Virus record (IMG/VR): IMGVR_UViG_3300043120_000047
Span: 1 to 37,965 of that record
Reading direction: 5' to 3' (one strand)
Origin: a virus
Taxonomy: Duplodnaviria > Caudoviricetes
DNA length: 37,965 nt
Both the position numbers and the translations under genes were made by a program. This document shows positions 5,060-12,087 of this stretch, piece after piece (within the stretch, counting starts at the first letter, position 1; every line of letters starts with the position of its first letter). A model generated the notes under the pieces. The model saw only the letters and a list, made by a program, of their open reading frames with translations. It did no database searches and was not told the DNA's origin.

Positions 5060-5539
5060 ATGAAAAATAGGTTTTTTAATAAAGATGATTGGGGTACACC
5101 AAAATATTTTTACGATGAATTAAATAAAGAATTTAATTTTGATTTCGATCCGTGTCCGTTGCGTTTTGTAAACGATGGTTTTGATGGACTAAAAATAGAA
5201 TGGGGAAAAAGCAATTTTATAAACCCGCCGTATGACAGAAAACTAAAACCACTTTTCGTCGAAAAAGCTATAAATGAAAGTTTAAAAGGTAAAGTGTGTG
5301 TTATGTTGTTGCCTGTAAGCACATCAACAAAGTTGTTTCACGAAAAAATAAAACCTTTTGCAAAAGAAATAAGATTTTTGAAAGGAAGGGTGCCATTTAT
5401 AGGGATTAATTCAAAAGGCGAGTATGTGAATTGGCATTTTGAAAATTTAAGTGGTTTAAAACCTCCACAAAACGTAAAACATGTTAAAGCAAACGGACAA
5501 CAAGATTTAATGTTGGTTATATTTGATGGAACAAAATAA
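5060..5539 (+). CDS. Phage Dam-type N6-adenine methyltransferase
   Basis: WGTP..FYDELNKEFNFDFDPC, FINPPY, VMLLP, IRFLKGR. Confidence 0.88.
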   Translation: MKNRFFNKDDWGTPKYFYDELNKEFNFDFDPCPLRFVNDGFDGLKIEWGKSNFINPPYDRKLKPLFVEKAINESLKGKVCVMLLPVSTSTKLFHEKIKPFAKEIRFLKGRVPFIGINSKGEYVNWHFENLSGLKPPQNVKHVKANGQQDLMLVIFDGTK

Positions 5540-5872: not shown

Positions 5873-6598
5873 ATGAAAAAAGAAAAAATAAAAATTGCTT
5901 GGTTTAGTGCTGGGGTTTCAAGTTTTTTAGCAGCATATTTATCAAAAGACATTGATAAAATAGTTTATATACACATTGACGACCAACACGAAGATACTTT
6001 AAGATTTTTAAAAGATTCAGAAAAATTACTTGGAAAAGAAATTGAAATATTGCAATCAAGGTATAAAAATGTTGACGAAGTAGTAAGACAATTTAAATAT
6101 ATAAATGGTGTAGCGGGGGCAACCTGTACAAAAACACTTAAAAAAAGAGTGAGAAAAGAGTGGGAAAAGCAATTTAAAAATAAAGAGATAACTTACGTTT
6201 GGGGATTTGATTTAACCGAAACAAATAGAGCAGAAAGATTAGTTGAAAGCATGCCAGAGTTTAAACATGAGTTTCCTTTGATTGACGCTCAACTAAAAAA
6301 AGAAGATGTACACGCAATTGCTAATAAATTAGGGTTAAAAAGACCTTACATGTATGATTTAGGGTATAGAAACAACAATTGCATAGGTTGTGTGAAAGGA
6401 GGAATGGGTTACTGGAACAAGATACGAAAAGACTTTCCTGATGTATTTGAAAGTAGAGCAAAACTTGAACGATTAATAGGAGCAAGTTGTTTAAATGGTA
6501 TTTATCTTGATGAATTAGATCCGAATAGAGGAAGATTTGAAGAAGAAATACAAGAAGATTGCAACATAATATGTCAAATACAATATAGTGATTTATAA
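5873..6598 (+). CDS. PAPS-reductase-family (adenine nucleotide alpha hydrolase) protein
   Basis: WFSAGVSS PP-loop variant; YDLGYRNNNCIGCVKGGMGYW; C-terminal CxxxC. Confidence 0.8.
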   Translation: MKKEKIKIAWFSAGVSSFLAAYLSKDIDKIVYIHIDDQHEDTLRFLKDSEKLLGKEIEILQSRYKNVDEVVRQFKYINGVAGATCTKTLKKRVRKEWEKQFKNKEITYVWGFDLTETNRAERLVESMPEFKHEFPLIDAQLKKEDVHAIANKLGLKRPYMYDLGYRNNNCIGCVKGGMGYWNKIRKDFPDVFESRAKLERLIGASCLNGIYLDELDPNRGRFEEEIQEDCNIICQIQYSDL

Positions 6599-7592: not shown

Positions 7593-7785
7593 AATAGTTG
7601 GAATAAACCCGATAACGCTTGATGTGTATTTATCAGATGGCGAAAAGCTACACGTTAAGGATTTTCACGATACGCCAAAAGTCGGATATGGCGTGGAATC
7701 GTTTGACGATTTCGGTTACAGGTGTATCGCAATAGGTGATGACACGGAATGTGTGTCTTGTGGACTCGATAACATAGGGGTGTGA
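7585..7785 (+). CDS. Hypothetical protein
   Basis: ATG after GAGGTG; MIKIVGINP... Confidence 0.65.
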   Translation: MIKIVGINPITLDVYLSDGEKLHVKDFHDTPKVGYGVESFDDFGYRCIAIGDDTECVSCGLDNIGV

Positions 7786-7787
7786 AT

Positions 7788-8243
7788 ATGAAAGAACAAT
7801 ATATAAAGGTATCTGATTTTTTAAAGTATTGTACGGATTCAGCCAAAGTATCAAGAGGGTTATACCATAAATGTTTAGACCAAGCGGTAAAAGGACCGGC
7901 AGCGAATTTATCGGCAGCAGCATATTTCGACCAGCAAACGATGATGTATGAGTACAACATACCGAACGTGATTCAGAATTTGGAATTGGTTGAGTTAGGT
8001 TTTGATGAATATGACAAAATGCCTGTTGAAGCGATGGATTTTAGCGCCAAAACATATCACTTGTTAAAAAGAAATGGGATTGAAACGGTTGGCGAACTTT
8101 TAGAAAAATATGAGTTTGAATTAATTAAAATAAGAAACATGGGTGGCAGAGGGTTACAAGAGATAAAAACAGCGCTTAAAGAACGCGGGTTATCATTGAA
8201 AGGAAAAACAAACAATGACAAGTATTCAGAAACAAACATTTGA
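7788..8243 (+). CDS. Protein with C-terminal RNA polymerase alpha-CTD domain
   Basis: PVEAMDFSAKTYHLLKRNGIETVGELL...LIKIRNMGGRGLQEIKTALKERGLSLK parallels RpoA CTD. Confidence 0.85.
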   Translation: MKEQYIKVSDFLKYCTDSAKVSRGLYHKCLDQAVKGPAANLSAAAYFDQQTMMYEYNIPNVIQNLELVELGFDEYDKMPVEAMDFSAKTYHLLKRNGIETVGELLEKYEFELIKIRNMGGRGLQEIKTALKERGLSLKGKTNNDKYSETNI

Positions 8244-9855: not shown

Positions 9856-10275
9856 ATGAATCAAGCAAACATCATAGGCAGACTTGTGCGTCAAGTAGAT
9901 TTAAGATTTATACCTGGAAGTGGCAGCGCAGTTGCTAAATTTAGCGTGGCTGTTGACAAGGGGCTTTCAAGAGAAAAGAAAGCAGAGTTTGAAGCAGCAG
10001 GAAAACCAACAGTAGATTTTATCAATGTAGTTGTGTTTGGGAAACAAGCAGAGAACGCAAGCCAGTATTTAGACAAGGGTCGATTGGTCGGAGTAAGTGG
10101 ATCAATTCAAACGGGCAGCTACAAAAATACAAAAGGCGATACAGTTTATACCACTGAAATTCTAGCAAACCATGTTGAGTATTTAGAATGGGGTGAGAAG
10201 AAAGAAGAAAAGAAAGACGATCTATCGTTTGACGATTTCCAAAGTATTGAGGATGATTCAAGTTTGCCTTTTTAA
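9856..10275 (+). CDS. ssb: Single-stranded DNA-binding protein
   Basis: NQANIIGRL...DFINVVVFGKQAEN..YLDKG.LVGVSGSIQ; acidic tail ending LPF. Confidence 0.96.
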   Translation: MNQANIIGRLVRQVDLRFIPGSGSAVAKFSVAVDKGLSREKKAEFEAAGKPTVDFINVVVFGKQAENASQYLDKGRLVGVSGSIQTGSYKNTKGDTVYTTEILANHVEYLEWGEKKEEKKDDLSFDDFQSIEDDSSLPF

Positions 10276-10298
10276 AACGTTGATATTTCAACATTTAC

Positions 10299-10327
10299 TT
10301 GCAATTGTCTGATAATTATGCTATAAT
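10299..10327 (+). promoter_or_regulatory. sigma-A-type promoter
   Basis: TTGCAA-17-TATAAT with TG extension. Confidence 0.85.
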
Positions 10328-10332
10328 TAAGG

Positions 10333-10494
10333 TGACCGAAGGCGTTACAATGCGGTTGGAATTACGCCAGTTTCCGGAACTGTAAAACCGGACAACTTAA
10401 AACAGTAATTGCTATGGGACAGGTCGGCGGACTTTCTGATACCCGAATATCAGATTACCATAGCAATTATGATTACCTTTCGGGAGGTATTGAT
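10333..10494 (+). ncRNA. Structured 5' leader / cis-regulatory RNA of unknown family
   Basis: Two hairpins, a three-way junction closed by a perfect 12-bp stem (10406-10417/10458-10469), and an RBS-sequestering hairpin. Confidence 0.65.
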
Positions 10495-10788
10495 ATGATT
10501 CAACGTAACATAGAACTAGGCTATGGAATTGTAACCAAAGACGCCATGCAAGACCGCAATTTAACCATTGAAGCAAAAGCAATATATTCATACTTGTGTA
10601 GTTTTGCAGGTGGTAAAGACGAAGCATGGCCAAGCATAGACAAAATGTGTTATGATTTCCAGATAGAGAAAAGAAGATTAAGAAAGCATATAAAAGTATT
10701 GGTTGATAACGAATACATTGAGATAGAAAAGTATAGATATACCAAAACAAGTCAATTTGCAAATAATCATTACATCATATTGAAGTAG
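10495..10788 (+). CDS. Minimal initiator-like HTH protein (97 aa)
   Basis: GYGIVTK..MQD..LTIEAKAIYSYLCSFAG....AWPS is the N-terminal HTH of Firmicute phage initiators; ATG 6 nt after GGAGGT. Confidence 0.8.
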   Translation: MIQRNIELGYGIVTKDAMQDRNLTIEAKAIYSYLCSFAGGKDEAWPSIDKMCYDFQIEKRRLRKHIKVLVDNEYIEIEKYRYTKTSQFANNHYIILK

Positions 10789-10797
10789 CCATAGTAC

Positions 10798-10931
10798 CAA
10801 AAAGGCATCACGGCAAAAAGGCGCAGTGGTAATTTGGCACAGTGACAAAATAGCACCTATAATAATAACAGTTTTTAATAATAACAATCTTTAATAATAA
10901 CAAAAACAAATAAGTCTGTTTTTCAACAGAC
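10798..10931 (+). repeat. Origin-like array: four 16-bp iterons, three AT-rich repeats, inverted repeat
   Basis: caaaaaggcatcacgg / caaaaaggcgcagtgg / taatttggcacagtga / caaaatagcacctata; TAATAATAACA at 10860, 10876, 10892; gtctgtt-tttc-aacagac. Confidence 0.7.
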
Positions 10932-11119: not shown

Positions 11120-11365
11120 ATATCTGAACATGACATTATCATAAAAAAAGTACACACTGGTTATATAGTTCATGTAAAAGGTAGAGAGAACCACGCACAT
11201 TTTTCACATAGAAACGGTTGTGAGATGCTAAAGAAACTTTTGGTCAAAGGATTGTTACCATCAAGAGAATATTTTTTAATCGCTGCCCAACGTATCTTGA
11301 CTCAAAAAGAGATAAGCGAATTGAAAATAATTAGGAAACAACAGTACATAAATAAGAAGGTGTGA
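11120..11365 (+). CDS. Hypothetical protein with probable ATA start (81 aa)
   Basis: AAGGTGGTGA RBS then ATA; open frame fills the gap to the MTase. Confidence 0.6.
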   Translation: MSEHDIIIKKVHTGYIVHVKGRENHAHFSHRNGCEMLKKLLVKGLLPSREYFLIAAQRILTQKEISELKIIRKQQYINKKV

Positions 11366-11367
11366 TA

Positions 11368-12087
11368 ATGGATATACAATTATACAATGGAGATTGTTTA
11401 GAAGTAATGGATAGATTAATTGAAGAGGGTGTAAAGGTTAACGCAATCATCACTTCACCGCCTTATAATTTAGGTGGAGATTTTCATACTTTTGTAAATG
11501 GTAAAAGAGTTACTTATGGGGACTATGGTGTATACAATGACAATCAAGACGAACAAGACTATCAAAATTTCCAAATTAATTTCTTGGAAAAAGCATATAA
11601 TGTATTAAGCGATTATGGTGTGATGTTTTATAATCATAAAAACAGAATTGTTAAAGGAAATGTTATTAGTCCTTTTGAGTGGATTTCTAAAAGTGAATTT
11701 AATGTGATGCAAGTTATTATAATGAATTTAAAATCAACTCCAAATGTAGATAAAAGAAGATTTTTCCCAGTACATGAATTAATATTTGTTTTAACTAAGA
11801 ATAAAGATTTTAAGTTAAACAACAAAGAATGCTTTACGGACGTATGGGAAATGAAAAAAGTTTCAAGGAAACAGTCTGGGCATCCAGCAACATTTCATAT
11901 TGATATGCCGACTAGATGTATTAACTCATTACCATTTGATAGTGGAATAATATTAGACCCTTTTATGGGGACTGGAACAGTAGGGGAAGCTTGTATTGAA
12001 ACCGCGTTTGATTTCATCGGTATAGAACTAGATGAAACCTATTACAACATAGCAAAAGAGCGTATAGAACAAGCAAAAGAGGTGTGA
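11368..12087 (+). CDS. DNA methyltransferase (probable N4-C, beta class)
   Basis: TSPPY, HPATF, LDPFMGTGT, GIELD. Confidence 0.92.
   Translation: MDIQLYNGDCLEVMDRLIEEGVKVNAIITSPPYNLGGDFHTFVNGKRVTYGDYGVYNDNQDEQDYQNFQINFLEKAYNVLSDYGVMFYNHKNRIVKGNVISPFEWISKSEFNVMQVIIMNLKSTPNVDKRRFFPVHELIFVLTKNKDFKLNNKECFTDVWEMKKVSRKQSGHPATFHIDMPTRCINSLPFDSGIILDPFMGTGTVGEACIETAFDFIGIELDETYYNIAKERIEQAKEV

Follow-up and report, generated by a model that had tools for sequence, protein, structure and literature searches.

The leader core at 10406-10489, which precedes a gene for a small DNA-binding protein, is a member of a phage RNA family outside Rfam 15 with about 120 distinct copies, and on comparative sequence evidence this motif is a widespread, uncatalogued phage cis-regulatory RNA that is real and well supported. 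We consider it probable, at roughly two chances in three, that a predicted kissing interaction between two of its loops (L3 and L4) locks a weak hairpin (P4) over the SD and keeps downstream translation low, so that the leader would work as a repressive clamp.

The window, i.e., the whole stretch of DNA analysed (37,965 bases), is the complete virus record IMGVR_UViG_3300043120_000047, and its genes, which include a methylase, a DnaC-like loader, ssb, terminase, portal and capsid, point to a Firmicutes-type tailed phage. It also carries three DNA methyltransferase-like genes (597-1436, 5060-5539 and 11362-12087), a PAPS-reductase-like gene (5873-6598) and a gene with an RNA polymerase alpha C-terminal domain (Pfam RNA_pol_A_CTD; 7782-8243). 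The features around the leader are collected in Table 1. The leader transcript likely starts at about 10333, assuming use of the promoter-like site listed there, which is present with few changes in related contigs.

Table 1. Positions of the leader elements, the downstream gene and its repeats in the window.
Feature	Position	Strand	Remarks
ssb gene	9856..10275	+	5' context of the leader/HTH_36 cassette
Promoter-like site, sigma70/sigmaA-type	10299..10327	+	TTGCAA-17-TG.TATAAT; 10/12, extended -10
Two hairpins	10341..10397	+	second hairpin keeps loop CUGUAAAA
Three-way junction	10406..10469	+	P1, J1/2, P2, P3, J3/1
P1	10406-10417/10458-10469	+	12 bp, 100% complementary
J1/2			GAC, between P1 and P2
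J3/1			UUA, between P3 and P1
P2	10421-10434	+	L2 tip GGCG at 10426..10429
P3	10435-10454	+	L3 loop CCCGAA at 10442..10447, predicted anti-SD kissing loop
P4 hairpin	10474..10489	+	loop UUCGGG at 10479-10484, kissing partner
SD GGAGGU	10483-10488	+	first two bases in P4 loop, rest in P4 3' strand
97-aa stand-alone winged-helix protein (HTH_36)	10495..10788	+	like N-terminal DNA-binding domain of phage replication initiators
Four degenerate 16-bp-period repeats, iteron-like	10795..10858	+	directly 3' of stop codon
Three AATAATAAC repeats, AT-rich	10859..10905	+	kept in five homologous loci

The helices, the junction and the SD hairpin that had been proposed from this sequence are each present in the window, and the L3 loop is, as had been claimed, the exact complement of the loop of the SD hairpin, a match that shuffling of the 45 downstream bases produces in 0.4% of cases. 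Because the SD is split between the loop and the stem of P4, the kiss and P4 together would cover all six of its bases. The calculated free energy is −4.3 kcal/mol for P4 alone and −7.8 kcal/mol for the kiss as a free duplex, and the leader folds with a z of −2.56, equalled in 2 of 200 shuffles, which is modest as evidence from a single sequence. The true start codon is the ATG at 10495, where the homologues begin; an in-frame ATG at 10414 was ruled out on the same grounds. Pairing of L2 (GGCG) with CGCC at 10365 was also rejected, as it comprises only 4 bp and is expected by chance. The covariance model described below detected no second copy of the motif in the window (next best E 0.43).

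The family was assembled from a first pattern built on the window and its closest homologue, L123 (78% amino acid identity in the downstream protein), which returned 58 IMG/VR loci. By-eye selection left 31 distinct true copies that, together with the window, L123 and L249, form the 34 rows of alignment A3; the pattern loci left out were chance matches or duplicates. A covariance model that leaves the kiss out recovered 11 copies from one 89-kb fragment and 5 from a second one, and the model together with further patterns gave 84 copies (83 distinct). A later set added 37 further distinct copies from 51 matches, 90 of 121 loci having been scored by the model and the rest taken as duplicates by contig name. 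Most copies were found with patterns that fix the core, and the copies are related to one another, so that the counts given here are inflated and the invariance of the core is partly circular; only 14 copies, from two genomes, were found by the model alone and are free of the pattern circularity. When J1/2 was left free in the pattern, 16 of the 43 matches had another tetramer; one of the 16 was L223, a known member in shifted register, and 12 of the other 15 were scored, all of which failed the model.

The view that the leader could not be assigned to a known RNA family held when checked: a scan of the window against Rfam 15 gave 0 matches at gathering score, no match lay over the motif in the 40 loci scanned (32 of them motif-bearing), and relaxed scans returned only noise at E of 7 or more. 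The exact 14-mer of P3 had only chance matches in IMG/VR besides the window's own copies, and blastn searches of cultured phages with the leader or two other copies as query gave no full match. A search of 5 and of 151 bacterial genomes with the model returned nothing, which is uninformative, as only a fraction of the candidates was scored and the search had no positive control. We found no description of the motif in the literature covered, which included few subscription papers; families reported by Weinberg et al. (PMC5737381) should be within the reach of the Rfam scan insofar as Rfam contains them. The candidate DNAVirus_8080 of Fremin et al. 2023 (79 nt, 29 sequences) comes from IMG/VR and lies upstream of mixed HNH, GIY-YIG and AP2 genes (PMC10690425). 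Its gene context is similar, and the motif could be DNAVirus_8080, judging by the available description rather than by its alignment; the mechanism proposed here is absent from that description.

Homologous leaders do covary, contrary to the outcome that had been named as speaking against the original prediction. In the 84-row alignment, which was fitted to the model and hence leans toward its structure, 92% of the cells pair, compared with 67% in shuffled and 41–53% in slid alignments, and 16 of the 18 pairs have changes on both sides; P1, P2 and P3 thus covary as far as aligned sequences can tell. ACA and UUA at the junction are invariant in all 84 copies and recur in all 14 model-only copies, where the neighbouring pairs vary (two genomes). 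The junction further contains a near-invariant G-U pair, while GAC and UUA are unpaired. In the L123 leader P1 and P3 are altered on both strands, and GACA and UUA are kept.

The kiss is conserved as a pairing and not as a sequence. At least 6 Watson-Crick pairs between L3 and L4 are available in 77 of the 84 copies, with 58 distinct loop words, as against 2.4% of 6928 swapped pairs, when the partner is counted within a fixed interval of 45 bases downstream and the L3 of L190 is set by hand. The same holds for 46 of 50 copies outside the training set and for 35 of 37 later unseen copies (4.2% when swapped), the kiss falling below 6 Watson-Crick pairs in 7/84 and 2/37 copies. In L123, CCCGAA/UUCGGG has become CCGUCA/UGACGG through three compensatory pairs, so that the kissing loop foreseen for the window is borne out both in the closest homologue and by compensatory changes across the family.

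The position of the kissing strand is consistent with a role in translation. A median of 9 nt separates its end from the start codon (n = 70), and an overlap of at least 2 nt with the SD is seen in 55 of the 64 copies with a called SD; in 7 of the 64 the strand ends before the SD, and the kiss could there act only through P4 or by steric hindrance. P4 itself is moderately supported by these comparisons, more weakly than the kiss: 62 of 77 copies can form a P4 of at least 4 bp, as can 47% of swaps, and the mean energy of the P4 region is −3.0 kcal/mol in the family vs. −1.7 kcal/mol in swaps. A geometric rule tying the linker to P3 length was sought and not found, as the distance from P1 to the kissing strand does not follow P3 length (rho −0.13, p 0.25, n = 75); the kiss may thus be intramolecular or could form between molecules.

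In 52 of 84 copies a promoter-like site is found 8–30 nt 5' of the top of P1, compared with 1 of 82 further upstream, and a promoter-like word lies inside the linker in 6 of 84, in a scan blind to unrecognised phage promoter types. With a promoter directly 5' of P1, the structure belongs to the gene's own message, where it would act as either a constant damper or a true switch. Antisense promoter-like sites were not enriched across the family (24/84 vs. 18/82 in the control), and a consensus scan found none in the window. Two related contigs carry a frameshift in the only upstream mini-ORF (10350-10385), which stops 110 nt short of the start codon; no conserved leader peptide was found, and L123 has no room for one.

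Two further hairpins at the 5' end of the leader had been included in the original prediction, and they are indeed present, but outside the conserved unit. In L123 and most family members the leader begins at a promoter-like site immediately 5' of P1, the two-hairpin element is missing from L123, and among 11 pattern matches in IMG/VR only the window's own copy was found. The second hairpin shows three compensatory pairs (10374-76/10389-91) in one related contig, and 10290-10392 is common to related contigs, which then diverge. On this sequence evidence, the 5' hairpins are a separate, locally conserved element. We take the loop of the hairpin at 10372-10393 (CUGUAAAA) to resemble the anticodon loop of tRNA-Tyr; a tRNA-like reading of the 5' hairpins was discarded, as ARAGORN and Rfam were negative and the order of the arms does not fit. 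The stretch 10389-10404 appears as a junction point, with two contigs diverging after 10392 and one carrying 93 extra letters there. In another contig the letters before 10404 look like the tail of an SD hairpin from an additional copy of the motif, and tandem leaders may therefore exist in relatives.

In the reading that we favor, the junction, with its GAC, UUA and near-invariant flanking pairs, would orient P3 toward P4, and the kiss would clamp P4, which is weak by itself. Lying in the gene's own transcript, the clamp would not be bypassed as the hairpins of T4 endonuclease genes are, and the protein might be made only in a short co-transcriptional window or once the clamp has opened. The genes under this control act on phage DNA by cutting or binding it; they are mostly nucleases, and the small initiator-like protein of the window would bind the repeats behind its own gene.

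A second contact may be superimposed on the clamp. The tip of P2 is self-complementary in 72 of 84 copies, compared with 29% of shuffles, while the P3 tip is so in 9 of 84; counted by distinct P2 sequence, 40 of 51 have a palindromic tip, with 10 central tetramers represented, and in the later set 29 of the 37 copies have one. It is likely that the self-complementary tip adds control by RNA-RNA dimers in most copies. The L2 tip of the window, GGCG, is not self-complementary and is among the 12 exceptions of 84; the window copy has likely lost its palindromic tip and retained the clamp, and would then work as a plain damper. However, a plain damper has no obvious need of an invariant core, which favors some kind of switch.

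The family heads genes of several kinds. In the first set, 57 of 75 downstream proteins are of HNH, GIY-YIG, NUMOD3, EndoVII-like or TnpB type, and the others comprise 7 DUF7487, 3 initiator-like, 2 DUF5055 and 6 unassigned proteins, after 9 that were near-duplicate, very short or from the window itself had been left out. In the second set (34 proteins), 30 match endonuclease-annotated PHROGs, another 2 are initiator-like and the remaining 2 gave no match. TnpB genes follow the motif in G008, L212, L224, L227, L249, L314, L329, L353 and L393, and a group I intron match lies about 150–200 bases 5' of the motif in L212, L224 and L227. The copies in L341, L347 and L475 lie within apparent tail operons and have non-palindromic P2 tips, with a DUF5055 gene behind the motif in L341 and L347; these copies were possibly domesticated for a structural gene. 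In L208 (2276-2390), an Rfam drum RNA stands directly 3' of the motif-headed endonuclease gene.

The gene behind the window leader belongs to the initiator-like minority. The match of the 97-aa protein to initiator profiles is confined to their N-terminal part. There are 37 database proteins that match it at 59–100% identity, mostly with a common end, 34 of which end in or read through an ILK-like end, and a weak search for full-length relatives returned only two, 47–48% identical. Seven close metagenome loci of the protein are available, among which L123 alone has a homologous leader, and in the 47 protein-found loci (L123-L169) and L002 the motif was likewise found only in L123. L124, L125, L127, L128 and L129 have other leaders, in which long hairpins or alternative pairings span the SD region and extended -10-like words can be made out by eye on the antisense strand, a picture that suggests antisense or attenuator control. 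L125 and L127 share a near-identical upstream Erf/Sak-like gene and a similar leader, and differ in the C-terminal halves of the HTH protein, an apparent allele exchange.

The repeats behind the initiator-like gene are likely its binding sites. A period of 15–16 bp or 31–32 bp is also found in L123, L127, L128 and L129, and weakly in L124, and in-frame stops interrupt the repeats, indicating that they are kept as DNA. The AATAATAAC tract that follows resembles the unwinding region of origins in initiator genes and may have that role. Origins within full initiator genes have this same layout of iteron-like repeats followed by an AT-rich tract, and the linker of P0039 served for comparison. In the window, a 262-aa gene with internal direct repeats and no family match (1452-2240) lies directly 5' of the DnaC-like gene and is likely the phage's main initiator with its own origin; the repeats that it carries are unlike those at 10795-10905.

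The combination of leader, stand-alone initiator-like domain and repeats occurs in the window, L123, L440, L219, L215 and L425, with four protein types: L440 has three near-identical 14-15-mers, L219 encodes a Phage_rep_org_N protein and L215 has four repeats. A terminase-small-like gene (called by PHROG in L123 and L219, by eye in L440) follows directly in L123 and L440 and one small gene further on in L219. Irrespective of the leader, stand-alone domains are followed by their own iteron-like arrays, often with an AT-rich tract, in the window (10495-10931), L123, L124, L127, L128, L129, L215, L219, L425 and L440, and among homologues the repeat sequence differs along with that of the recognition helix. 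In one related contig the window leader is unchanged to 10498 and is followed by a gene beginning like the L440 protein, so that the gene behind the leader appears to have been exchanged at the start codon.

One reading would join these observations, although we hold it only tentatively and think it more probably wrong than right. The motif would be a copy-counting RNA class, in which leaders dimerise through the self-complementary P2 tip as phage DNA and transcripts rise, thereby setting the SD clamp and dosing selfish DNA-acting cassettes. These would include an undescribed non-nuclease kind, made of a stand-alone initiator DNA-binding domain plus its iterons and exchanged between related phages, which would likely serve as a private replication-fork barrier or second origin.

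Alternatively, the junction might bind a small molecule or host factor that closes or opens the kiss on the SD, which we regard as unlikely; the repressive fold would be the same as in the favored reading, with the junction serving as a binding pocket. Weinberg et al. flag sophisticated RNAs by a multistem junction, a pseudoknot and conserved bases (PMC5737381), and the motif combines all three. The unpaired GAC and UUA are invariant, the G-U pair at the junction is nearly so, and the element sits at the 5' end of the transcript and overlaps the SD; it thus has, as a riboswitch does, a conserved core with an expression platform at the SD in the 5' UTR. However, the downstream genes are unrelated DNA-acting families without a common metabolite, they cannot all supply one RNA-binding protein, and the core is small enough to be purely architectural.

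Less probable is that the kiss activates, competing with P4 to hold the SD open under antisense control, as the analogy with IncI/IncB plasmids in the original prediction would imply. In ColIb-P9 repZ (IncI-alpha/IncB/IncL/M), a pseudoknot keeps the SD open and activates, translation of a leader peptide is needed, and the antisense Inc RNA blocks the pseudoknot (PMC4705826). The analogy stands in that loop pairing is predicted at the SD of an initiator-like gene, the kissing strand does end before the SD in the 7 copies mentioned above, and the same protein family elsewhere has alternative SD hairpins and antisense -10-like words (by eye). The sign of the analogy is likely wrong: the kiss covers the first SD bases in most copies, and the kissing strand is the loop of P4 and not one of its strands, so that the two are compatible. 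Neither enriched antisense promoters nor a conserved leader peptide was found.

The chances are slimmer still that the motif is a new class of small self-cleaving ribozyme whose cleavage frees the SD after a delay. It has a compact junction and a pseudoknot with invariant bases, and ribozymes are often found near phage endonuclease genes. However, no Rfam ribozyme matched at any threshold tried, nothing marks a cleavage site, and the hammerhead core (CUGANGA, GAAA and UH around three stems) was not seen when the window and L123 were inspected on both strands. Least probable of all is that the window leader is a remnant inherited from a nuclease cassette and no longer regulates: its palindromic L2 tip is lost and five other close protein homologues have unrelated leaders, but all helices and the kiss are perfect in the window copy, L123 preserves them in front of the same gene family by compensatory change, and three other initiator-like protein types are also preceded by the motif.

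The motif is a widespread uncatalogued RNA fold in which covariation speaks strongly for a kissing loop on the RBS, and, read as a repressive clamp, it bears on how phages tolerate homing endonuclease and TnpB genes with their own promoters. The window adds that the same leader marks cassettes of a mini-initiator and iterons, and these suggest that mobile DNA-acting modules of a second kind exist in Firmicutes-type phages. One 89-kb phage fragment (G003; L301-L310 and L179) carries 11 copies, each with a different kissing word; a TAAATA late-promoter-like word stands just 5' of these copies, and the palindromic tip is lost in several. With 11 different loop words on one fragment, such copies would form a natural set of orthogonal translation clamps.

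For the protein-plus-site module, the nearest model may be the roadblock at SPP1 oriR. There, apart from the main origin, G38P binds a second iteron site near ssb and recombination genes, and one full initiator serves both sites (PMC3485210). The window resembles SPP1 in pairing an initiator-type DNA-binding domain with a second iteron site in such a neighbourhood, but it differs in having a separate, C-terminally truncated protein with repeats of its own, distinct from those at 1452-2240.

For the RNA, the comparison closest in purpose is with the T-even phages, in which RBS-sequestering structures repress the homing endonuclease genes I-TevI, I-TevII, I-TevIII, segB and Aeh1 mobE; these are single hairpins that are bypassed by an internal late promoter (PMC2988022). 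The motif likewise would bury the SD of a phage gene, as covariation and position predict, and likely serves the same purpose. Unlike these hairpins, it has a conserved three-way junction and a kissing loop, usually lies wholly downstream of the gene's own promoter, and is used by HNH, GIY-YIG, EndoVII-like, TnpB and non-nuclease genes. The window gene is an HTH_36 gene and not a homing endonuclease, whereas most other copies head endonucleases.

The preQ1, SAM-II and SAM/SAH riboswitches also bury the SD in a pseudoknot. As in these, the pseudoknot helix takes in the first SD bases and a small conserved core lies in the 5' UTR; however, fold and sequence are different, there is no Rfam match and the gene context is not metabolic. 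With IncI rep the motif shares a loop-mediated long-range pairing beside the SD of an initiator-type gene, and differs in that, at the sequence level, the kiss takes in part of the SD and can coexist with the SD hairpin. Among kissing complexes, the HIV-1 DIS is a palindromic kissing loop, and TAR-TAR* and ColE1 RNA I/II are fully paired 6/6 or 7/7 complexes. The L2 tip of the family stays self-complementary like the DIS, though the window's own tip does not and the dimer is a prediction, and L3 and L4 are 6–8 nt loops paired along their length, as in TAR-TAR* and ColE1 RNA I/II. Most likely the motif acts like the T-even RBS hairpins and the SD-burying pseudoknots, yet is a member of neither group, nor of the IncI systems.
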